Source of the DNA: a virus
Reading direction: 5' to 3' (one strand)
IMG/VR virus record: IMGVR_UViG_3300036985_009306
Coordinates: 96,001 to 160,000 of that record
DNA length: 64,000 bases
Shown here: positions 8,133-63,031 of the stretch, in pieces
Position numbering within the stretch: position 1 is the stretch's first letter
Layout: each line of letters opens with the position of its first letter
Translations under genes and position numbers: made by a program
Notes under the pieces: generated by a model
The model's database searches: none
What the model saw: only the letters and a program-made list of their open reading frames with translations
Told to the model about the DNA's origin: nothing

Positions 8133-8768
8133 ATGCATAAATATTCAGAGAATTGTCAAATTTGTAACATAGTTGGTGATTTTTCAGCTAAAACAAGTTC
8201 TAATATGAGCATTGGGGAAGCTAAGAGGAAAGTTGAAGAGCTTTTAAAAAATCCAGAACTTTTAAAACAAGTAGGAGATGCTCTTAAGAGTGCTTCATTG
8301 AACAAGGAAGCTGCTATTTCTCCTTTAATAAGAACATTTGTTCTTGCTCTAATGACATTAGCCCCTTCTATTTTTGCTGTTCCAAGTATTCAAAGTGATC
8401 TTGAGATGAAGCTTAAACATGGTGATAATATTACAATGGAACAAGTAAATACAATGGAAGATAGAGCCAAGAAAGAAATGCAGACAATGACAGAGACTTC
8501 TGTCAATAAAGTTAATGATGCAATTAAAGATGATAAAGGTAAAGAAAAACAGGTTGATTTTGGAATTCAAGTAGGCAAAGAAAAGTTAATGGCAGCAAAT
8601 GCATATGAGGCCAATATTCTAAAAAATATGGCACAATTGCATAAAATTCTTTTTGCACAGATGAAATCAGGAATTATGGATCAAGCAAGTTATGATAAAG
8701 CTTGTCAAATATTGATAAGTTCTTTTAATAAAGCTATAGCAGGACAGGCTCAAGAGGTTGTTCTTTAG
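8133..8768 (+). CDS. Hypothetical protein (possible virion-internal protein)
   Basis: AGGAGG SD; helical; followed by a terminator. Confidence 0.55.
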   Translation: MHKYSENCQICNIVGDFSAKTSSNMSIGEAKRKVEELLKNPELLKQVGDALKSASLNKEAAISPLIRTFVLALMTLAPSIFAVPSIQSDLEMKLKHGDNITMEQVNTMEDRAKKEMQTMTETSVNKVNDAIKDDKGKEKQVDFGIQVGKEKLMAANAYEANILKNMAQLHKILFAQMKSGIMDQASYDKACQILISSFNKAIAGQAQEVVL

Positions 8769-8805
8769 CAATTTATAAGTTAAAAAAACTGAAAATTATG
8801 ATAGA

Positions 8806-8840
8806 AATGTAACAGGGCGTATGCTCTGTTACATTTTTTG
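8806..8840 (+). terminator. Rho-independent terminator
   Basis: AATGTAACAG / CTGTTACATT hairpin followed by T tract. Confidence 0.7.
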
Positions 8841-8856
8841 TTTTTAGAGAGTAAAG

Positions 8857-10329
8857 ATGTCTGACTTTCGAATTGAAATAGATAATACTTGGACTTATAT
8901 AAAACCTAATGTCGAAGTGAATAAGAGTGTTATTAGACGTATAGAATCAGAGATGTCTTATACTGTTGAAGAATATAATCGTTTTACAAAAAAAACTGTA
9001 GATCATGATATTTCATTGTTTGAGAGAGATCTGCTCCGTTATCCTACAGGGCTTTATTCTGTTCTTGATAGAATTCTTACAGAATGTGGATATACTTTTG
9101 ATGTAATTGACAAAAGAAATATACCTCAAGTCAATCAACCTTTACAATTTTATTCTAAAAAGTTAAGAGATTATCAAGAAGAAGCTACTGAGGCTGCTAT
9201 TAAAGCACAGAGAGGTGTCATTAAAGTAGCAACAGGTGGAGGAAAAACTGTAATTGCTGCAGCTATAGTTGCAAGATTGAATATGAAGACAATTTTTATT
9301 GTTTATTCTATTGATTTGCTTGAGCAAACAGCTGATGAATTTGAGACTATGTTTAGATTGAAAGTAGGAAAAATAGGTGGAGGATATTGTGATATTCAGC
9401 AAATAAATATTTGTACAGTTCAGACTTTACATTGCGCATTTGATCTGAAATATATAGTAGAGAGTGAATTGTTTATTAAAGAAAAAATATCTCAAGAAAT
9501 ACTTAATAGGAAAGAAGAAGTTAGAAAAGTTGTCCAAGAATCAGAAGTTGTGATTGTTGATGAGTGTCATAAACAATCTGCTCAAAGTTATATTGATATT
9601 ATGAGGTCTATGTCTAATTCATTTTTCCGTTTTTCACTTTCTGCGACACCCTACCGTGATGAATCTATAGACAAAGTTCTTGATGCATATTCTGGAAAAT
9701 TGATTTGCAATATTAATGCTTCATATTTGATAGAGAGAGGTTTTTTAGTACCTCCTAAGATATACATGTTGGATCCAAATGAGATTAATTATAAATTTGT
9801 AAGAAAATCATTTAAAAGTGTGTATGATAAATGGATAGTTAATAATGCTGATAGAAATCAGATGATTGTTGATAGTACTCAAAGATTGATAGAATTGAAT
9901 AAGTCTGTGTTAATAACAGTTACTCAGATAGTTCATGGTGAGATTTTGTGTGAACAACTTGATAAAGTTGGAGTTAAATCTGTTGCATTTATACGTGGTG
10001 AAGTAGATAAAATTGAGAGGAAAAGATTACTTAATGAAATAAGAGAAAAGAAACTACAAGTCCTTGTCGGAAGTGTTGTTGCAGATGAAGGGATAAATTT
10101 ACCCGCTTTAGGTTCAGCAATTATGGCAGGTGGTGGAAAATCACTTATAAAATCGCTTCAAAGAGTTGGTAGGACTTTGAGACCTTATCCGTCTGCAGAA
10201 AATAATGAAAAGAAAGAAGCAATAATTGTAGATTTTTATGATAGAATTAGATATTTAACAGGACATTCAAGGAAGAGAATTAAGATTTATGAGTCAGAGC
10301 CGAAATTTCAAATTTTTAAACATTTTTAA
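8857..10329 (+). CDS. SF2 DEAD/DEAH-like helicase (UvsW/XPB-like)
   Basis: ATGGGKT Walker A; IVDECH; LSATP; QRVGRTLR. Confidence 0.9.
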   Translation: MSDFRIEIDNTWTYIKPNVEVNKSVIRRIESEMSYTVEEYNRFTKKTVDHDISLFERDLLRYPTGLYSVLDRILTECGYTFDVIDKRNIPQVNQPLQFYSKKLRDYQEEATEAAIKAQRGVIKVATGGGKTVIAAAIVARLNMKTIFIVYSIDLLEQTADEFETMFRLKVGKIGGGYCDIQQINICTVQTLHCAFDLKYIVESELFIKEKISQEILNRKEEVRKVVQESEVVIVDECHKQSAQSYIDIMRSMSNSFFRFSLSATPYRDESIDKVLDAYSGKLICNINASYLIERGFLVPPKIYMLDPNEINYKFVRKSFKSVYDKWIVNNADRNQMIVDSTQRLIELNKSVLITVTQIVHGEILCEQLDKVGVKSVAFIRGEVDKIERKRLLNEIREKKLQVLVGSVVADEGINLPALGSAIMAGGGKSLIKSLQRVGRTLRPYPSAENNEKKEAIIVDFYDRIRYLTGHSRKRIKIYESEPKFQIFKHF

Positions 10330-22593: not shown

Positions 22594-22841
22594 TATAGAA
22601 ATTAGACATGGACATTAAAGAAATAGAAGATCATGAAAACAGAAGAAAACTAGTAAATTAGGATCAGCATTTGAATCCGTAAACCAACCATCCGGTCGGC
22701 GCTCTATGGCAATTATTCATTAATGTGGTTTGCTCTTGGTTTGATGCTTGGTGGAATTTACGAGAAGCGCCGTTGTAAGAAATTCGCCCGTTTTTGGAGA
22801 GAGCACAATACTGAAAAAGGTTTTATGAAAGATTAAGAAAG

Positions 22842-38624: not shown

Positions 38625-39095
38625 ATGCTTAGAGATACACAATCAAAGTTTTTAAATGATATAAGTATTTCAAAAAGAGGTATTGTAAAAGTTGCTTCTT
38701 CACAAGTTCCGAGAGGAAAAGAAGCAACAACTAAACATGAAGTCAAGAAAGTTTTAAAGACTTTTGAAAAAAGTCCTGATGTGACAAAGGATACATTAAA
38801 TAAATATCAACAAAGAGTGGAATTAGATCCAAGTCCAAAAAATGTTGCTAAAGATTTCTTTAATGATCTTGGTGAAGCAAGAAAACATAAAAAACAAATG
38901 CATTTAGTAACTGCTATGTCTTTGAGACAAGCAGGTATCTTTAAGATAGCAGGTAGAAATGTATATGAGGATTTAGAGACAGGTGATTTTTGGAAAATGT
39001 CTGAAGACAAGAAACATGTTTTACGTATGTTCAAAGAAAATAATGGTATTGCTGTAAATTTAAAAGATAAAAAACATGTCGTCAATTGCCATTAA
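38625..39095 (+). CDS. Hypothetical protein whose last codons (VNCH*) come from the IscB element left end
   Basis: AAGGAG SD; GTCAATTGCCATTAA begins in frame at 39081. Confidence 0.6.
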   Translation: MLRDTQSKFLNDISISKRGIVKVASSQVPRGKEATTKHEVKKVLKTFEKSPDVTKDTLNKYQQRVELDPSPKNVAKDFFNDLGEARKHKKQMHLVTAMSLRQAGIFKIAGRNVYEDLETGDFWKMSEDKKHVLRMFKENNGIAVNLKDKKHVVNCH

Positions 39096-39310
39096 TGGTC
39101 TAAGCCGTGAGGTTTAGTGCAAGAGTTGATTAGAGGGCATGAAAATGCAGAAGTTTAAAGCAGAGTTAAAGAACGTACCAAAGAGTGCTCCACAAGCTCT
39201 TTGCTCTACAAGTCCATCTTTAAACAAAGACCAAAGTCTTAGTGAGATGGACAAAGTACTGGCTTTAAACAACCTCGAAGTGGATCCACTCCAACATAGA
39301 GGAGGACAGA
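39081..39310 (+). ncRNA. omegaRNA scaffold (3' boundary approximate)
   Basis: GTCAAT paired with GTTGAT; hairpins CTAAGCC/GGTTTAG and AAAGAG/CTCTTT; directly upstream of the PLMP domain. Confidence 0.7.
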
Positions 39311-40505
39311 AACTCTCTGTCACTATCTATGTATTTAACATACATGGCCAACCTCTAATGCCATGTTCACCAAGAAAAGCTAGAGTTTTATTAAAGAGAG
39401 GAGAAGCAAAAGTCTTAAAAACAAATCCATTCTTTGTCATTCAACTTACTAAAGAAACTAGTAATCATGTACAAGAGTGCTCTTTAGGAATAGACTCTGG
39501 TTACAAGCATATAGGTTTTTCTGTAGTTAGTGACAAGAAAGAAATTGTTTGTGGTGAGTTAGAACTTGATCAAAAAACTTCTGAAAGATTAATTAAACGA
39601 ACAGGATATCGTAGAAATAGAAGAAATAGATTGTGGTATAGAAAGCCAAGATTTAGTAATAGAAAAAAAGATAAAGGATGGTTGCCGCCTTCAACTTTAA
39701 GAAGATTCAACACTCATATCTCTCTTATCAACAAACTCAAATCTTATCTACCAATCAAAGATATCTCTATAGAAGTAGGAAATTTTGATATTCAGAAGAT
39801 AGAGAATCCAGATATTAAGGGAATACAATATCAACAGGGAAGTTTGTATGAATATCAGAATATGAGAAGTTTTTTAATGGATAGAGAACATGGCAAGTGT
39901 CAACTATGTGGAAAAGAATTTAGCAAAGGAAATGACTCACACATCCATCATATTATTCCCAGAGATGATGGAGGGACAGATAGAGAAAAGAATTTAGCTT
40001 TGTTGCATAAAAGTTGTCATAAAAAACTTCACAAACAAAAATTATTTGATAAATTAAAAAAGAACAAGCAGTATAAAGATTCAATATTTATGAATATTAT
40101 TAGATGGAGGTTTAGAGAAATATTTAGAGAATGTAGGTTAGTGTATGGGAATGAGACATTTGTAAAGAGAAATGAGTTAAGATTAGAGAAGAGACATTGT
40201 AATGATGCTTTTGTAATAGCAAGTGGTACAAATCAAATTAAGACAAATCCTATGTTTTTAAAACAGAAACATAAAAATAATAGAGTTTTGCAAGTTAATA
40301 GAAAAGGTTTTAGACCTTCTATCAGAAGAAAAAGATATTCTATTCAACCCTATGATATAGTATTTATAAATAACAAGAAATATATTGCAAAAGGGTGTCA
40401 TTGTTATGGTAAAAGTATTATTTGTAATAATAGAATAAAAACTTTGGATTGTAGTATTAAAAAAGTTGAAAAAGTTTTCTATACAAATTCAATTTTTCAA
40501 AAAAT
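39081..40505 (+). mobile_element. Non-autonomous IS200/IS605-family IscB (OMEGA) element
   Basis: GTCAAT...GTTGATTAGA omegaRNA-type 5' end, intact iscB, no tnpA; removing 39081-40505 restores an open C-terminus for the flanking gene. Confidence 0.8.
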
Positions 40506-40509
40506 ATAA
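39139..40509 (+). CDS. iscB: IscB RNA-guided endonuclease (PLMP, split RuvC, bridge helix, HNH)
   Basis: GQPLMPCSPRKAR; LGIDSGYKHIG; RRNRRNRLWYRKPRF; IEVGNFD; CQLCG...HIHHIIPRDDGGTD...NLALLHKSCH; HCNDAFVIA. Confidence 0.92.
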   Translation: MKMQKFKAELKNVPKSAPQALCSTSPSLNKDQSLSEMDKVLALNNLEVDPLQHRGGQKLSVTIYVFNIHGQPLMPCSPRKARVLLKRGEAKVLKTNPFFVIQLTKETSNHVQECSLGIDSGYKHIGFSVVSDKKEIVCGELELDQKTSERLIKRTGYRRNRRNRLWYRKPRFSNRKKDKGWLPPSTLRRFNTHISLINKLKSYLPIKDISIEVGNFDIQKIENPDIKGIQYQQGSLYEYQNMRSFLMDREHGKCQLCGKEFSKGNDSHIHHIIPRDDGGTDREKNLALLHKSCHKKLHKQKLFDKLKKNKQYKDSIFMNIIRWRFREIFRECRLVYGNETFVKRNELRLEKRHCNDAFVIASGTNQIKTNPMFLKQKHKNNRVLQVNRKGFRPSIRRKRYSIQPYDIVFINNKKYIAKGCHCYGKSIICNNRIKTLDCSIKKVEKVFYTNSIFQKI

Positions 40510-46084: not shown

Positions 46085-46136
46085 ACAATGAATTCTAAGA
46101 TTAATTATTAGAGTTTATAATTGAAAGGAGCGACAA

Positions 46137-46409
46137 ATGTCAACTTGGGTAGTTCCAATCGTGGTTTGTTTTTTAGTAGGTGCATTTTCTTTCTTCATGG
46201 GGCGGTGGAGTCGCCGTTCTAACACTAAGGCAGGCGCTCCTTCCACATCAACCAACAGTGATTATGCGGCGTTGGCACAGGCGTGGCGCAAACTTGCTGA
46301 TGAGTCAAGTGACGCACGGTATAGTGCTCATCTTTATGGTTGTGCCGAAGATTTGTGCCAACTCAATTCGGCCAAAGCTCCGAACTCGCATTTTGCGGCG
46401 ACTGTATAG
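46137..46409 (+). CDS. Cassette-like small ORF reading through attC-like element A
   Basis: AAAGGAG SD; N-terminal TM; ...STSTNSDYAALA...; stop inside the right arm. Confidence 0.5.
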   Translation: MSTWVVPIVVCFLVGAFSFFMGRWSRRSNTKAGAPSTSTNSDYAALAQAWRKLADESSDARYSAHLYGCAEDLCQLNSAKAPNSHFAATV

Positions 46410-46410
46410 G
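46252..46410. repeat. attC-like imperfect inverted repeat A (degenerate)
   Basis: ACATCAACCAACAG left end; GTTGGCAC / GTGCCAAC arms; ends ACTGTATAGG, 8 nt before the next ATG. Confidence 0.45.
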
Positions 46411-46417
46411 GACACAA

Positions 46418-46630
46418 ATGGATTCTAAATACGTAGTTCATCTTCTAAAACAACTAATTGTGAAGCACGGGCAGGTTCGGCACAACGAAGCATTGGAATC
46501 CATTTGTGCAGAACTGAAGGGGCACTGCAAAACAGTCCGGCGAAACGCCCATACAACAGACAAAGTGCGCCATATAGATGACGTGTTCCTTCGACCGAGA
46601 GCTTCGGGCAACTATCGAAAAATATTCTAA
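46418..46630 (+). CDS. Cassette-like small ORF
   Basis: ATG follows the element A right end; contains an orphan left arm GCCCATACAACAG. Confidence 0.35.
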   Translation: MDSKYVVHLLKQLIVKHGQVRHNEALESICAELKGHCKTVRRNAHTTDKVRHIDDVFLRPRASGNYRKIF

Positions 46631-46871
46631 TGATGGTTTGTTGTCGGCAGGAGAAATTGTTGCCGTATTGGAGGTTGTAAAACATGCTACCATTCACGCT
46701 GCTGAGAATGCGGCGGCTGACACTGAGGTAGACAATTTTACATCCACCAACAGCGCTATGGATGCCATTGCCGAACTCGCCGAAAAGTTCATTGTGTCAA
46801 ATAAATGTGACGAAAGTGTTTCTATAATGCTGCGGTGCTTTGCGGAGTATGTTCGGCAACAGCACCAGTAG
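46578..46871 (+). CDS. Cassette-like small ORF reading through attC-like element B
   Basis: ...FTSTNSAMDAIA...RQQHQ*; stop lies in the right arm. Confidence 0.5.
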   Translation: MTCSFDRELRATIEKYSNDGLLSAGEIVAVLEVVKHATIHAAENAAADTEVDNFTSTNSAMDAIAELAEKFIVSNKCDESVSIMLRCFAEYVRQQHQ

Positions 46872-46885
46872 CGCGAACGTTGGCC
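46745..46885. repeat. attC-like imperfect inverted repeat B
   Basis: CCAAC...GTTGG ends; GCGCTA/TAGCGC and TTGCCGAAC/GTTCGGCAA arms. Confidence 0.7.
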
Positions 46886-46938
46886 AAAATAAACCGCGTT
46901 GGGAACAGATATTATAGCCCGGCGCAGGAGAAAACAAA

Positions 46939-47265
46939 ATGGAATGCAAATTTACCCAGGGCTTTGTGACAGCGTGTGCGGCAACGTTGCGTAATCATGG
47001 TTGTGATACCATTGTCGCGGATACTCTCGTTTGTTGTGGCCCAGTGTCAGTGGATCAGTATCGGAAGTTGGGTGTTGAGGAATACGACATTGATATTTTG
47101 CGACCTGTTATCAAAGAAATACAAAGGAAGAAAAGATGCGCCAGGAGTACACTGCGGAAACGCAGTTTACATCGGCCAACAGCTCAAGCATGGCAATCGG
47201 ACGGTACTGTGGTGCCTGCTGACGGTTACGGCCAGCATAGTCATCCTGATTTTTTCTCAAATTAA
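46939..47265 (+). CDS. Cassette-like small ORF
   Basis: AGGAG SD; GC-rich; runs into element C. Confidence 0.5.
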   Translation: MECKFTQGFVTACAATLRNHGCDTIVADTLVCCGPVSVDQYRKLGVEEYDIDILRPVIKEIQRKKRCARSTLRKRSLHRPTAQAWQSDGTVVPADGYGQHSHPDFFSN

Positions 47266-47296
47266 CGGCGCCACTCTGATATCCAGATGTTGGTGC
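47174..47296. repeat. attC-like element C
   Basis: ACATCGGCCAACAG left end; right arm CACTCTGATATCCAGATGTTGGTGC nearly identical to the right arm of element F at 62757. Confidence 0.55.
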
Positions 47297-47312
47297 AAGA
47301 AAGGAAATACAA

Positions 47313-47564
47313 ATGGTATTAATTGACGGCAAAGAAGTAGATGTTAAAGAAGTCGATGCTGCAAAACATGGATTTATTGGGACGTTTCGTAAACCGTTTG
47401 AACAAATCAAAAGACCACTTTACGACATAATTTTTTGCAGTTGCGGATTGAATGTTTGTGGTGGTCACTATGACCTTTATCAACATTGGCAAATGGGGCA
47501 TTTTGACTTGTTGCAATACAAAACAATAGAAGATGTGCCAACGGAAATTAAGGAAGTGGCATAG
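47313..47564 (+). CDS. Cassette-like small ORF with Cys/His motif
   Basis: AAAGGA SD right after the GTT of element C; CSCG...HWQMGH. Confidence 0.55.
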   Translation: MVLIDGKEVDVKEVDAAKHGFIGTFRKPFEQIKRPLYDIIFCSCGLNVCGGHYDLYQHWQMGHFDLLQYKTIEDVPTEIKEVA

Positions 47565-47569
47565 ACATC

Positions 47570-47659
47570 TTACAACAGCAGCATAAAATAACCGCCGACT
47601 GGTGGAATGATTGGAGTACCATAGATGATGAGCCATTTGACATTTGACAACTGTTAGGA
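47570..47659. repeat. attC-like element E (weak arms)
   Basis: Stop-ACATCTTACAACAG left end; ends CTGTTAGGAG, which also supplies the SD of the next gene. Confidence 0.4.
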
Positions 47660-56927: not shown

Positions 56928-57200
56928 ATGTTAGACAAAAGACAAGAAGCCGTTTCTATTGCAGAAGAAGTGTTGAACGTTATTCCTAAGGAAGTTACAT
57001 ATAAAGTGCCTGGTCTGACTATGGAGGATATTAAAATTACATATAAAGTGCCTGGTCTGACTATGGAGGATATTAAAATTACATATAAAGTGCCTGGTCT
57101 GACTATGGAGGATATTAAAATTACATATAAAGTGCCTGGTCTGACTATGGAGGATTTAAGTGTTGTTAAAGTTTATGGTGACTGTAGTTTAGATGGCTAA
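56928..57200 (+). CDS. Hypothetical protein with a 14-aa tandem repeat
   Basis: GGGAGG SD; (I/V)TYKVPGLTMEDIK repeats; 3' end overlaps tRNA-His. Confidence 0.45.
   Translation: MLDKRQEAVSIAEEVLNVIPKEVTYKVPGLTMEDIKITYKVPGLTMEDIKITYKVPGLTMEDIKITYKVPGLTMEDLSVVKVYGDCSLDG
56995..57155. repeat. Perfect 42-bp tandem repeat, about 3.8 copies
   Basis: TTACATATAAAGTGCCTGGTCTGACTATGGAGGATATTAAAA at 56995, 57037, 57079 and partial at 57121. Confidence 0.95.
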
Positions 57201-59384: not shown

Positions 59385-59942
59385 GTGAAAGAACAATTTA
59401 TAGATCCACGAGTGAATATTATCACACATAATTTTATACGAGAAAAAATTAAAGAAATCCCAGAAGATGTAAACAAGATTTCTAATGAACAATGGGATTG
59501 GATTTTAGATTTGACAAAAGATGAAGGTCTTTTAAAACTTGAGTTTCGATGCAAGATTATTAATAAATTAGGTTTTGGTCATTCTCTTATTTTTAATAAA
59601 GAAGCAAATCAACCTATTCTTTGTATAAAGAGAGAGTTTCCAAAATGGGACAAAAGTATAGGTAAAAATGGTGGATGGTTAGTTTCTGATGAAACTCAAA
59701 ACAATCCAGAAAAAATAAAAAAAGGTTTTGAAATTATTAGACAATATTTAAAACCTATTGAAGAAACAAGTATTGTTTTTGAAGTTTGTGATCTTAAAAA
59801 ATGTTCATCTGTTTTATTTGTTAGCAAAAGAAATGTAAAACTTGTAGAAACTGATGAGAAAATTAAAGAATTTAAAAACTTTGGTATATTTATAGATTGG
59901 TTGTTTGATCAATACGCTGAACTCATACAAATGAGTGGATAA
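59385..59942 (+). CDS. Hypothetical protein
   Basis: 185 aa, GTG start. Confidence 0.55.
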   Translation: MKEQFIDPRVNIITHNFIREKIKEIPEDVNKISNEQWDWILDLTKDEGLLKLEFRCKIINKLGFGHSLIFNKEANQPILCIKREFPKWDKSIGKNGGWLVSDETQNNPEKIKKGFEIIRQYLKPIEETSIVFEVCDLKKCSSVLFVSKRNVKLVETDEKIKEFKNFGIFIDWLFDQYAELIQMSG

Positions 59943-60114
59943 AGGAAAGAGAATAATATGACAGATGAACAAAGAGCTTCTTACATTATATCGCAATCAG
60001 TTTGTGCCTTGGCCGAAATAGAATACCCTTTTCGTACTGAATCTGATTTTCAAGGAGTTGACAAACCAGTTGCGCGTTATTGTAGTTCTGCCGCGAGAAA
60101 GGTTAAGGTTCAAA

Positions 60115-60321
60115 ATGAAGTTGACAGAATGTAAGGTTGGTTGTCCTCGGCGCGGCAGAAAGAAAATTGTGGAGTTGCCGCAAACAGGCAAACAACAACG
60201 CAAGGGCGAAATTTGCCGCTGCGGTAGCAAGAAAGATTGGGAACATATTCGTAACTTTGTCGGTTGGTGTAACTTTAATTTTTGTCCCGAATGTGGCGGC
60301 AAACTGTCGCCCGTTGCGTAG
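60115..60321 (+). CDS. Cassette-like ORF whose Zn-finger C-terminus is encoded inside attC-like element H
   Basis: CRCG...FCPECGGKL; stop TAG in the right arm. Confidence 0.5.
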   Translation: MKLTECKVGCPRRGRKKIVELPQTGKQQRKGEICRCGSKKDWEHIRNFVGWCNFNFCPECGGKLSPVA

Positions 60322-60330
60322 ACGTTAGGC
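60190..60330. repeat. attC-like inverted repeat H (clearest example)
   Basis: AAC...GTTAGGC core; ACGCAA/TTGCGT, GGGCGA/TCGCCC and TTTGCCGC/GCGGCAAA arms with unpaired G60313. Confidence 0.75.
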
Positions 60331-60421
60331 ACAATTGTCAACGCTTGAGAGCTATAGTTTTTGGGAGCTAAGATGTCAAAGATGAGTATATGGGCATGTA
60401 ATTGTATTCCTGGTGTGAAAT

Positions 60422-60652
60422 ATGAGATATGATGATGGTGATTTTTTTCCTTATACTTTATTTGAAATTTGTAGGGTAGGAACGAAAGCTAAACACCAGA
60501 TTAATGATGTAAGACATTTCAAAGATGAGAAAAAGTTTGTTAAGGCTGTGCGAGGGGCAAAAATAAAGATAGATCAGAATTATGGGCGTAGAAAAATTAA
60601 AAAGTTATTGCAGGAAATTGAAAGAATAGAATATATGTATCAGTTGAATTAA
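60422..60652 (+). CDS. Hypothetical protein (start uncertain)
   Basis: 76-aa ORF. Confidence 0.4.
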   Translation: MRYDDGDFFPYTLFEICRVGTKAKHQINDVRHFKDEKKFVKAVRGAKIKIDQNYGRRKIKKLLQEIERIEYMYQLN

Positions 60653-60783
60653 TAATATTATAAGTAATTTTACAGAAGAATACGTACAAAAAGAAATGTA
60701 TGATTATTTTGGCATAAAAGAAAATGATAACATATTAAACATAAATGGAAATATAAATACAGATTTCTTTGAAGGGATTAAAA

Positions 60784-61182
60784 ATGAAAAAGATACCAAC
60801 CGTTAGTGGAATTGTATCAAAACCTGCTAATGATGAATATAGAAAAAATTATGACAGGATATTTGGTGAACAACAAGAAATTAAAGAAAAACCAATAATT
60901 AAAGAAAAACCAATAAAAAAAGAATTTATAGATTTAATTCCTATAAGAAATGATCTTGTTAATATAGAACGTAAACTTCGTAGACTATTGCACCCTTTAG
61001 AAAATTGTGGAATACGAGGTTATATAGAATGTAAACTTCGTAGACTATTGCACCCTTTAGAAAATTGTGGAATACGAGGTTACACAAGTAAAGAATTCGA
61101 GGGATTTCAATGTATTGAGATAGCCCAATCAATTAAATTTCTTTTATGTAAAATTGATGAACAAAATCACGAGGCAAAATAA
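60784..61182 (+). CDS. Hypothetical protein with internal duplications
   Basis: IKEKPI x2; 20-aa unit x2. Confidence 0.45.
   Translation: MKKIPTVSGIVSKPANDEYRKNYDRIFGEQQEIKEKPIIKEKPIKKEFIDLIPIRNDLVNIERKLRRLLHPLENCGIRGYIECKLRRLLHPLENCGIRGYTSKEFEGFQCIEIAQSIKFLLCKIDEQNHEAK
60962..61082. repeat. 60-bp near-perfect tandem duplication
   Basis: GTAAACTTCGTAGACTATTGCACCCTTTAGAAAATTGTGGAATACGAGGTTA at 60971 and 61031. Confidence 0.95.
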
Positions 61183-61265
61183 ATCATGGGTAAAAAAGCG
61201 TGCTAAGTTGTGATAGGAAGATGAAAAAGCAATAATAATTGATTTACCAAGTTTAGGAAAATTAT

Positions 61266-62273
61266 ATGCTTAGAAAACTAGCTTCAATTCGAAAAGTAAG
61301 AGACATCAAACCAATAAAAGATGCTGATGCAATTGAACTTGCAATTGTTGATGGATGGCAAGTAGTTGTAAAAAAGGGACAATTTAAACTTGATGAACTT
61401 GTAGTCTATGTAGAAATAGACTCATTTTTGCCAGAACGCTCAGAATTCGAGTTTTTAAGAAAAAGCTCACATCGAACAATGGCGGACGGTTCAACAGGAT
61501 TTAGACTTAAAACTGTTCGTTTGAGAGGACAACTTAGTCAAGGTTTGATTCTTCCTCTCAATGAAGTCAATCTTTCTAATGTCAATCTGGGTGATGAAGT
61601 TACAGAGCAACTGGGAATTAAAAAGTATGAACCACCTATTCCAGCTTGTCTTGCAGGAGAGATGAGAGGAGCTGTTCCAGGAGAAATTCATAAAAGTGAT
61701 CAAGAAAGAATTCACAATTTATTAAACTATTGGACAATCTATAAAGATTTAGAATTTGAAGAAACAGAGAAGCTCAATGGTGCTAGTATGACTGTTTATC
61801 ACAATCAGGGAGATACCGGAGTTTGTGGCCATAAATGGAATATGAAGGAAACTAAGGACAACACCCTTTGGAAGGTCTCTAGAAGGCTCGAATTAACAGA
61901 GAGATTAACTAAATTAGGATTGAATCTAGCACTTCAAGGTGAGATCATTGGAGAAGGTATTCAATCTAATTGGTACAAAATAATTGGACAAACTTTTAAA
62001 ATCTATGATATCTGGGATATTGACAATCAGTACTATTTAACAAACAAAGAACGATTAGATATCATTCAAAAACTTGGATTTGATCTTTCTATTCACGTAC
62101 CTATTCTAAATGCTCATATGAAGATTTTTGATATAATTAAAGATGTTAATGAATTTTTAGAATATTCAACAGGAATTTCAAAATTAGCCAATGTGCAACG
62201 AGAGGGTCTTGTTTATAAATCAACAGAAAGAGTTGGACCTCAAACTATTTCTTTTAAAGTATTAAAAGAGTGA
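61266..62273 (+). CDS. ATP-dependent RNA ligase (DRB0094/Rnl2-like family)
   Basis: RKLASIRKV..IKPI.DADAIE...GWQVVVKKG...EIDSFLP; TEKLNGAS; LQGEIIGEGIQ; REGLVYK; ISFK. Confidence 0.9.
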   Translation: MLRKLASIRKVRDIKPIKDADAIELAIVDGWQVVVKKGQFKLDELVVYVEIDSFLPERSEFEFLRKSSHRTMADGSTGFRLKTVRLRGQLSQGLILPLNEVNLSNVNLGDEVTEQLGIKKYEPPIPACLAGEMRGAVPGEIHKSDQERIHNLLNYWTIYKDLEFEETEKLNGASMTVYHNQGDTGVCGHKWNMKETKDNTLWKVSRRLELTERLTKLGLNLALQGEIIGEGIQSNWYKIIGQTFKIYDIWDIDNQYYLTNKERLDIIQKLGFDLSIHVPILNAHMKIFDIIKDVNEFLEYSTGISKLANVQREGLVYKSTERVGPQTISFKVLKE

Positions 62274-62277
62274 TTAT

Positions 62278-62535
62278 ATGACTAAAGAAGAATTTTGTAA
62301 AGCTCCCAAAAAGGTAACTATAGTTTTTAATCGAGTAACATCAAATGAAGAATTAAAAAGACTTTTAGATATGGCAAGTTTGAATGTCGAAAGTTCTATT
62401 ATGGGTGCTGATTTTAGTACTGTGGAAAATGGTGTTCAAAAGAGTTGCGGAACGCCTTACATCTTACAACAGGTCGAGTATGCCATGCCGGGGAATCCAC
62501 AGACGCGAGCTATCCTTGGCAACAAGGGTAGATGA
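62278..62535 (+). CDS. Hypothetical protein running into element D
   Basis: AT-rich N-terminus, GC-rich C-terminus. Confidence 0.45.
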   Translation: MTKEEFCKAPKKVTIVFNRVTSNEELKRLLDMASLNVESSIMGADFSTVENGVQKSCGTPYILQQVEYAMPGNPQTRAILGNKGR

Positions 62536-62597
62536 AAAAGGTGCAGTCCGGTTACAAGTCGGACGTTCCCCGGCACAGCACACGTCGGCCGTTTTCT
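62464..62597. repeat. attC-like element D
   Basis: ACATCTTACAACAG left end; perfect TGCCGGGGAA/TTCCCCGGCA arms; ends GGCCGTT. Confidence 0.65.
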
Positions 62598-62655
62598 TTT
62601 CTGGTGGAAGGTGTGTGACATTTCCGCTGACATTAGGGAAATTCGCGCAACGGTC

Positions 62656-62781
62656 GTACAACAGGCAAAGGAATGCCATAACCTTGACACTATAGAAGTA
62701 AAAAATAAATAGCGGTTCGGCAAACGGATGCCGTAACCGCTGCAAGAAATTTATGTCACTCTGATATTCAGATGTTGGCGC
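62656..62781. repeat. attC-like element F
   Basis: TACAACAG left end; internal AGCGGTT/AACCGCT hairpin; right arm CACTCTGATATTCAGATGTTGGCGC then AGGAG SD and ATG. Confidence 0.6.
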
Positions 62782-62794
62782 AGGAGAAAACCAA

Positions 62795-63031
62795 ATGCCT
62801 AAATTCAGACTTAGAAATTCAGTAGATTGTGAAGAAGAACAGATAGTCAATCTTATTAAAGGTACTAACGGGGAACGATTTATAGCAGGTTGGAAAGGTT
62901 GCGGTGCTGTAAAATTCAAAGCAAATGATACAGCACTAATTTTTGAAGTTATGTGTGAAAATAAACCCTATGGTGATGTCGGGGTTACTTGGGAAGAAGA
63001 TGCGTCAACGGACACTAAAGAAGTGACCTAA
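62795..63031 (+). CDS. Cassette-like small ORF after element F
   Basis: AGGAG SD directly after GTTGGCGC. Confidence 0.55.
   Translation: MPKFRLRNSVDCEEEQIVNLIKGTNGERFIAGWKGCGAVKFKANDTALIFEVMCENKPYGDVGVTWEEDASTDTKEVT

Follow-up and report, generated by a model that had tools for sequence, protein, structure and literature searches.

The window analyzed here, a 64,000-nt stretch of phage DNA, contains at positions 60194-60335 what is probably a folded recombination-type site, forming the 3' end of a mobile cassette of ~270 bp that landed at a GTT in a native gene; members of the same family of sites occur in unrelated phages. The family is non-canonical, phage-borne, and attC-like, and the special feature of the subfamily represented in the window is a hypervariable, cysteine-rich coding loop. 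An earlier note on this DNA had proposed a solitary, near-canonical attC-like site with a zinc finger encoded in its loop; as a whole, that interpretation is partly supported. The features discussed are collected in Table 1.

Table 1. Features of the cassette region and of the other family sites in the window (window positions)
Feature	Position	Strand	Description
ORF A	59958-60134	+	58 aa; chimera, first ~34 codons native phage gene, tail from cassette DNA
GTT at 5' junction of cassette 1	60057-60059	+	identity to paralogue stops at 60060; GC rises from ~0.27 to 0.43-0.49
Cassette 1 (~270 bp)	60057-60326	+	promoter-like motif, start-region hairpin, ORF B, attC-like site
Promoter-like TTATTGTAG	60077-60085	+	TTATAG-type motif, conserved as GCGTTATTATAG in L006 and L009
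Start-region inverted repeat TTCTGCCGCG / CGCGGCAGAA	60087-60160	+	10 bp; encloses ribosome-binding site and ORF B start
ORF B (P0001)	60115-60321	+	68 aa; basic N-module (..CKVGCPRRGRKKIVELPQT..) and C-module (ICRCG..FCPECGGKLSPVA)
R''-like box GCAAACAAC	60188-60196	+	9 nt, AAC at its end
Left arm	60198-60219	+	ACGCAA (60198-60203), GGGCGA (60204-60209), AA, TTTGCCGC (60212-60219); codes ..RKGEICR
Loop	60220-60295	+	76 nt; codes CGSKKDWEHIRNFVGWCNFNFCPEC; counterpart of the attC variable terminal structure
Right arm	60296-60319	+	GCGGCAAA (60296-60303), CTG, TCGCCC (60307-60312), unpaired G60313, TTGCGT (60314-60319); codes GGKLSPVA
3' spacer AGAC, GTT junction, conserved tail GTTAGGCACAAT	60320-60335	+	GTTAGGC at 60324-60330
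Second-cassette stub	60336-60432	+	CTTGAGAGCTATAG (60344-60357), GGGAG, 19-codon ORF (60373-60432)
Second intact family site	46749-46881	+	structure-scan score 16; within GC-rich island 46101-47640
Two decayed sites, third GC-rich island	62460-62596 and 62650-62770	+	read by eye

Genomic Setting

The window covers bases 96001-160000 of a 192,143-bp IMG/VR record that is 97% complete. The phage genome is 31% GC and includes a tRNA array, and the window genes are all on the + strand. The site lies in a GC-rich island (0.43-0.49 GC, compared to about 0.27-0.33 in the flanks), by all appearances foreign DNA within a native gene, ORF A. A paralogue of this gene at ~184.0 kb in the same genome (L002:1370-1521) is 96-97% identical to it up to window position 60060 (..CAAGGAGTTG), beyond which the paralogue goes on with unrelated sequence of its own and the window with GC-rich DNA. 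The insertion point within ORF A is a GTT, and in related contigs the cassette boundaries are exactly at C|GTT. The paralogue sequence does not resume 3' of the island, so a simple insertion is only putative.

The GC-rich DNA of the island has counterparts of 85-93% identity in metagenome contigs that are otherwise unrelated. For cassette 1 the identity is 87-93%, to L006 (60074-60326), L009 (60074-60212), and L007 (60189-60334). In the second-cassette stub that follows, TATAG is found at +29 from the GTT, its modal position in the family, and after the stub GC content is back to phage level.

Contrary to the earlier note, the site is not solitary: the window contains a second intact site and two decayed ones, and there is a further junction motif at genome position 181829. 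The second intact site has the stems GCGCTA/TAGCGC, TGG-A-TG/CACCA, and TTGCCGAAC/GTTCGGCAA, a bulged G, and the ends GAAC-GTTGGCC; its island comprises about five cassette units, with R''-type motifs at 46246, 46741, 47170, and 47566. In the decayed site at 62650-62770, the right arm CGGCAAACGGATGCCGTAACCGCT is the exact reverse complement of a stretch in an intact homologue (L052:3803-3884), which looks to be a local inversion within the site.

Some further features were noted in passing. Directly 3' of the ORF A paralogue, L002:1570-1740 (genome ~184.17-184.34 kb) contains AGGAGG and then an ATG-TAA start-stop, after which comes a modestly GC-rich stretch from GTAACAACGCGCG to GAGAACGTTGGATAC that may be a decayed site. 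At window positions 22683-22775 a junction-type motif, AAGCGCC-GTTGTAAGAAAT, is followed by TTTTTGGAGAGAG, with CCAAC-C..GGCGCT as a possible left partner; this may be another cassette remnant. A HEARO RNA (Rfam RF02033, 98 bits) at 39081-39289 overlaps the start of a 456-aa ORF (39139-40509), an arrangement like that in IscB/IS605-type elements, and L009 has an IS605 OrfB gene 500 bp from its own cassette sites. Two window ORFs contain tandem in-frame DNA repeats: three copies of KITYKVPGLTMEDI at 56928-57200, and two of CKLRRLLHPLENCGIRGY at 60769-61182.

Anatomy of the Hairpin

Window positions 60194-60326 fold into an imperfect hairpin that has AAC and GTT at its foot and contains three stems, unpaired G60313, and spacers of 1 and 4 nt; the earlier note, which gave an AAC...GTTAGGC hairpin with these stems, this unpaired G, and an asymmetric spacer, had the anatomy right (60194-60330). 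At the 5' foot, AAC (60194-60196) is followed by the unpaired spacer A60197. The stems pair as ACGCAA/TTGCGT, GGGCGA/TCGCCC, and TTTGCCGC/GCGGCAAA, with an internal loop AA/CTG. The R''-like box has the family consensus CA(T/G)C-NNN-YAAC-A, and by the family rule the next cassette starts with the GTT at 60324. In DNA folding, the + strand reached -26 kcal/mol (z -2.9; one of 200 shuffles equally good) and the - strand -24 kcal/mol (z -2.8; none of 200).

Positions 59800-63000 had no Rfam match, either at the gathering threshold or at E <= 5; no tRNA or tmRNA was found at the hairpin site; and the GenBank phage collection gave no DNA match, close or distant. The inverted repeat at the start of ORF B, which may be a translational control hairpin, has its left arm conserved in L006 and L009 and missing in L008.

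ORF B and the Coding Loop

ORF B is read through the entire hairpin, as ...ICRCG...FCPECGGKLSPVA*, and its stop codon TAG (60319-60321) starts on the last stem base; at 55 of 101 sites, a stop codon lies within the last 13 nt before GTT. It has no Pfam or PHROG family. Loop codon differences number 8 synonymous and 2 non-synonymous between the window and L006, and 9 and 3 between the window and L007, marking ORF B as a real gene. Taken with the compensatory arm changes described below, this bears out the earlier suggestion that one stretch of DNA serves as a folded attC-like site and as a coding sequence at the same time.

An exhaustive HMMER search yielded 12 proteins, some matching only the N-half of ORF B and others only the C-half, the latter with the pattern [NNARD/QQRKG]EIC.C ... 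CP.CG.KLSPVA*. QQRKGEIC and NNARDEIC are one DNA in two reading frames, with a second indel restoring the frame. Since the same left-arm DNA is read in two frames, it is the nucleotides that are conserved there, not the peptide. The N-module is also found with other hairpins (L008, L009), and the C-module behind other N-termini (L007, L010, L011, and others). Within this coding-loop subfamily, the arms encode ..NNARDEIC / QQRKGEIC and GKLSPVA*, and the loop a hypervariable CxxC...CxxC mini-domain.

The pattern CxC...CxxC is invariant across eight homologues of the C-module. Among structure-scan sites with AATTTGC as the left inner arm, 26 of 31 encode at least four cysteines or two CxxC motifs, and the loops of sites found by right-arm pattern are wholly different in sequence and length, yet in frame and cysteine-rich. 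The zinc finger of the earlier note is thus putative, and zinc binding is suggested by the cysteine pattern: Pfam gave no match, a PDB profile search of the C-module gave E >= 0.2, and an AlphaFold2 model (pLDDT 62) was too uncertain for use. In IMG/VR, 19-20-mers specific to the loop or the N-module had no match, and a protein-pattern search gave 583 raw matches, none of which was confirmed.

One pair of sites shows loop exchange directly. L029 and L035 are ~99-100% identical over ~240 nt up to AAATTTGC, have unrelated loops, and are again ~99-100% identical from GCAAAC on for more than 150 nt; L029 has one mismatched middle-stem pair (C.A), as would remain after crossing over within the arm. 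The ~25-nt arms hardly differ from site to site, so homologous recombination in the arms would swap loops and hence protein C-termini, and is the simplest mechanism for doing so. Together with the recombined N- and C-modules, this upholds the idea of swappable C-terminal modules in the earlier note.

Two other routes to loop variation were considered and set aside. In a shufflon-like inversion of the loop between its arms, the inverted loop meets a stop after six codons (by eye); and whereas the variable region of a diversity-generating retroelement changes at adenines, these loops vary throughout their sequence and in length as well.

A Family of Sites

A structure-only scan was defined by AAC, one base, an outer stem of at least five of six pairs, an arm score of at least 13 (dynamic programming), three to five bases, and GTT. 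In 396 kb of related phage contigs it found 112 sites on the gene strand and two on the other. For the two outer stems of 20 short-loop sites, 91.7% of cells are paired compared to 56% in shuffles, a figure inflated by the scan's own selection of paired stems, which leaves the strand bias and the pattern-found set unaffected. Sixty-two cells changed on both sides, compared to 21 in shuffles; neither value was reached in any of 500 shuffles, and slid controls gave 26-46%. One-sided changes of G-U type, which the scan itself penalized, were found in none of 180 cells. The strand counts and the stem covariation together argue that the hairpin is no chance by-product of zinc-finger codons.

The right-arm pattern alone is found at 48 metagenome loci and in six IMG/VR contigs. 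It had no matches in 185,579 prokaryote species genomes, which as a single narrow pattern makes it weak evidence of absence. In the copies found this way, the left arm tracks the right: apart from two exceptions, the middle stem has either C-G or T-A. Inner-stem variants are TTTGCCGC/GCGGCAAA, TTTGCGCC/GGCGCAAA (in L014 and L016), TTTGCCCT/AGGGCAAA, and TTTGCAC/GTGCAAA. L015 is compensated in all three stems (ACGAAA/TTTCGT, TGG-A-TGA/TCA-CCA, and TTTGCCAC/GTGGCAAA), its non-synonymous left-arm changes matched by synonymous right-arm ones, and L009 keeps the three-stem layout with entirely different letters. There are also pairs broken by synonymous changes, in L007, L010, and L011, where protein constraint would seem sometimes to win over pairing. 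Overall, the covariation points to a hairpin under selection as a structure. Loops vary while arms covary, which is what the earlier note proposed to look for; its refuting observation, arms lacking compensatory changes across homologues, is not what was found.

The common layout starts with YAAC-A and has a variable loop flanked by three stems per arm, two purines left unpaired in the 3' arm, and a 3' end NNAC-GTT(G/A)NNN(G/C/A)(A/C)AAT, with GTTG in 83%. The unpaired purines are at two right-arm positions ~6-7 nt apart (in the window G60313 and G60306, 6 bp apart), and over the family there are 126 extra bases on the right arm vs. 24 on the left. In the scan hits the 5' spacer was preset at 1 nt; the best 3' spacer is 3-5 nt in all. 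GTTRRRY, the integron R' box, fits only 14 of 100 family sites: the window has it exactly, as GTTAGGC, in what now appears as a minority accident. Since it occurs about 300 times in the 192-kb genome (166 + 133), it carries no weight alone.

Most cassettes have a TTATAG-type motif ~24-31 nt after GTT, which looks like a promoter; T[AG]TA[GAT] peaks at +28 to +31 from GTT, in 39 of 100 sites. A related observation is that some short-loop sites (L028:816-898, L041:488-569, L064:1575-1654) have ATTATAGG inside the loop, directly 5' of the right inner stem, and that with long coding loops a ATTATAGG-type motif is instead ~30 nt after GTT. In sequence it is similar to the ..TATAG G start of promoters for single-subunit RNA polymerases.

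These geometries bear on whether the site could be an ordinary integron attC, and the island a piece of a bacterial integron array (CALIN) acquired by the phage, with a canonical IntI of the host as its recombinase. For comparison, the canonical attC definition was taken from Nivina 2016 (PMC5027507), and attC_aadA1 of plasmid R100 was folded with the same tool. In a canonical attC, each arm has an unpaired spacer of 5-6 nt that separates its R and L boxes (PMC5027507); the spacers are 5 and 6 nt in attC_aadA1, and 1 and 4 nt in the window site. The canonical extrahelical G and T, 6 bp apart on the bottom-strand L'' arm, read on the coding strand as C and A in the 5' arm (PMC5027507), whereas the unpaired bases here are on the GTT-side arm of that strand, opposite to attC_aadA1. 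On both counts the description "near-canonical" has to be given up. The AAC/GTT triplets do match integrons, as do the G|TT junction, chimeric R boxes, and more stable bottom strand described below; moreover, phage CALINs with IntI1-recombined attC sites have been published (PMC9892861), with methyltransferase cargo as there is here. Against this, besides the spacers and the misplaced bases, are the rarity of GTTRRRY, the occurrence of the right-arm pattern in metagenome and IMG/VR contigs vs. none of the prokaryote species genomes, and a promoter-like motif belonging to the cassettes themselves. We consider an ordinary attC unlikely, though it is the strongest of the alternatives, and prefer a site family distinct from it.

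Cassette Junctions, Polarity, and Strand

Cassettes common to several contigs match at 100% identity as far as the C preceding GTT, and past GTT(R) the sequences are unrelated; the 5' ends show the opposite, with flanks that are unrelated through C and identical from GTT on. Where two hairpins are near-identical, upstream DNA is common and downstream DNA different in eight pairs, and the reverse is found in none, a polarity which makes the unit an ORF followed by a site. In five further pairs, including window vs. L007, the hairpin is common and neither flank is, so that mechanisms besides GTT crossover must act too.

Hairpins shared with neither flank would also be left by a palindromic miniature element, MITE-like or similar to the Rickettsia palindromic elements, which are in-frame palindromic insertions; the arms would then be transposase-bound terminal inverted repeats. 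In keeping with this, the hairpin is translated as part of the host protein. This seems very improbable here, however. The hairpin is inherited with its upstream ORF and never with downstream DNA alone; there is one site per unit boundary, not two ends; compensatory changes affect single pairs within individual copies; the loops are unrelated, whereas palindromic miniature elements keep their center; and no transposase is associated with the sites. The ORF-then-site cassette remains the preferred unit.

The ends of successive units are related. The six variable bases after GTT of one site match the six before AAC of the next at 4.02 of 6 positions, compared to 2.71 for the site's own AAC and 2.69 for random pairs; all six positions match in 15 of 52 pairs, and pairs separated by less than 300 nt mostly have four to six matches. 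In arrays, the R''-like box pairs with the 9 nt after the preceding site's GTT. Given such complementary ends, circularization of a unit that begins at G|TT and runs as far as the following ..AC-G would complete an R box of 9 bp. Bottom-strand arms fold better by 0.88 kcal/mol on average (64 sites vs. 35, p = 2e-5), which fits crossover on the bottom strand. As a second test of strand, the asymmetry of G.T vs. A.C mismatches is dominated by one conserved A.C position and otherwise uninformative.

The stem-loop and promoter motif could alternatively form a regulatory unit like the promoter-early stem-loops (PeSLs) of T4-type phages: an RNA hairpin serving in 3' end protection, RNase III processing, or termination, then a promoter, with shuffling by homologous recombination and no dedicated recombinase. 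PeSLs have been described as composite terminator/promoter motifs mediating modular shuffling (PMC4122927), and both the fixed position of the TTATAG-type motif (+28 to +31 after GTT) and the setting in accessory regions of large phages are in keeping with this. So are the loop swaps, which fit homologous recombination in the arms, and the failure to find a recombinase. The breakpoints are harder to explain, since they coincide exactly with GTT, a place with just ~6-8 conserved nt, and do not fall in the 25-nt conserved arms; nor does homologous recombination predict complementary variable bases at unit ends. As for an RNA function, there is no U-tract 3' of the window stem, the non-transcribed (bottom) strand is the better-folding one, and one-sided G-U type changes are missing (with the caveat on the scan given above). 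We regard a PeSL-like unit as improbable, more so than an integron attC, and return to site-specific recombination as the preferred reading.

Carriers and the Search for a Recombinase

The contigs carrying these sites are phages of different kinds, with large-terminase genes of TerL or GpA type. One of them (G001), a 45.6-kb record of 55% GC with a lambda-type portal and capsid, has at least nine cassettes in its first 5.9 kb. What carriers have in common with the window's phage is cassette ORFs and a few weak matches (24-53% identity). They also hold RNA ligase and NAD-salvage genes, Tad2-/Tad3-like anti-Thoeris genes, and many orphan methyltransferases, several of these within arrays. As a separate observation, L048 has a full-length histidinol dehydrogenase gene (8693-10051; Pfam E 3e-141) and a GT2 glycosyltransferase ~6 kb from a seven-cassette array; the contig may come from a bacterium instead of a virus, a point that would matter for where the cassette system resides.

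The tyrosine recombinase family PF00589 was not found in this phage's genome, nor in five IMG/VR records, among them two complete genomes (167.7 kb and 105 kb). A tblastn search of 401 kb with the R100 IntI1 found no IntI1-like gene, a crude HxxR...Y motif screen was likewise negative, and Pfam identified no recombinase among ~40 large contig ORFs. The arrays tend towards contig ends, as in L032, L038, and L058, so an array head with the recombinase may be missing from the assemblies.

Proposed Mechanism and Significance

If this reading is correct, an integron-integrase-like or Xer-like enzyme would move the cassettes through site-specific recombination, acting on one folded strand, probably the bottom one. 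No gene for such an enzyme was found in this phage, so the site here would be a relic or a passive, CALIN-like target; it is probably a relic without its enzyme. Neither an excised circle nor an empty site was observed, and movement by site-specific recombination is accordingly inferred from comparative anatomy only.

A broader proposal is plausible, and is offered tentatively, as one that we judge slightly more apt to be wrong than right: several unrelated phage types would have an integron-like cassette system with a mirrored, non-IntI site geometry, and in one large subfamily the site would be an exchangeable protein module, whose recombination diversifies accessory, possibly anti-defense, C-termini. 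If so, the conserved arms would have two roles, as the stem for recombination and as constant segments on either side of a hypervariable Cys4 mini-domain, in a natural case of domain shuffling by an att site. To our knowledge, natural attC sites have not been described as under simultaneous structural and coding selection, as read in two frames, or as swapping C-terminal domains. The coding-loop subfamily would be a testable natural counterpart of engineered attC sites placed within genes.

Integrons are regarded as a bacterial device; from phages we know as yet of a handful of attC clusters that lack an integrase (CALINs), and their attC sites are canonical. In the present case a lambda-like 55% GC phage, an AT-rich jumbo phage, and TerL- and GpA-type phages would be trading the same small cassettes, methyltransferases included, in regions that also carry Tad2/Tad3 anti-defense genes. 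The differently built folded site would point to a separate recombinase and a phage-to-phage gene market.

Comparison with Known Systems

The closest likeness is to integrons. In both, an imperfect hairpin is closed by AAC and GTT, conserved in structure rather than sequence, with a variable terminal loop and unpaired bases ~6 bp apart on one arm; the ORF precedes the site, the junction is G|TT, and the R' of one site pairs with the R'' of the next. Chimeric attC sites of integron arrays are explained by the same cassette circularization (10.1101/030866). There is a further likeness to CALINs in particular in the co-oriented arrays, several sites without an integrase, and orphan DNA methyltransferases as cargo, although the CALIN class itself rests on IntegronFinder's attC model. 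The differences are as follows: spacers of 1 and 3-5 nt rather than 5-6 per arm; extra bases that are two purines on the 3' arm of the coding strand, a geometry mirrored relative to the crossover; and boxes that depart from the canonical R' = GTTRRRY and R'' = RYYYAAC (PMC5027507), with GTTG... as the family R' and GCAAACAAC as the window R''. The cassettes have a promoter-like motif, ORFs run through the whole site, no IntI was found, and family sites were found on phage or metagenome contigs only.

PeSL cassettes (Arbiol 2010, PMC2839356; Comeau 2014, PMC4122927) are likewise repeated stem-loop and promoter units, found on either side of small accessory ORFs in the plastic genome regions of large phages, and likewise a proposed driver of modular shuffling. 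They are short conserved terminator/promoter sequences, however, thought to act by homology, whereas the hairpins here are long and coding, with conserved bulges, precise GTT junctions, and complementary unit ends.

The rAID-1 arrays of Bacteroidales are an integron-like system headed by a XerD-family recombinase rather than IntI (Ross 2019, 10.1101/471110). These are chromosomal and carry immunity genes, and no Xer-like gene was found here.

Finally, Nivina 2020 (PMC7439510) deals with synthetic attC sites set within coding or arbitrary sequence, on the idea that such a site depends on its structure only. Those sites are engineered, whereas the overlap of folded site and gene here is natural, with a loop that encodes a variable family of mini-domains.
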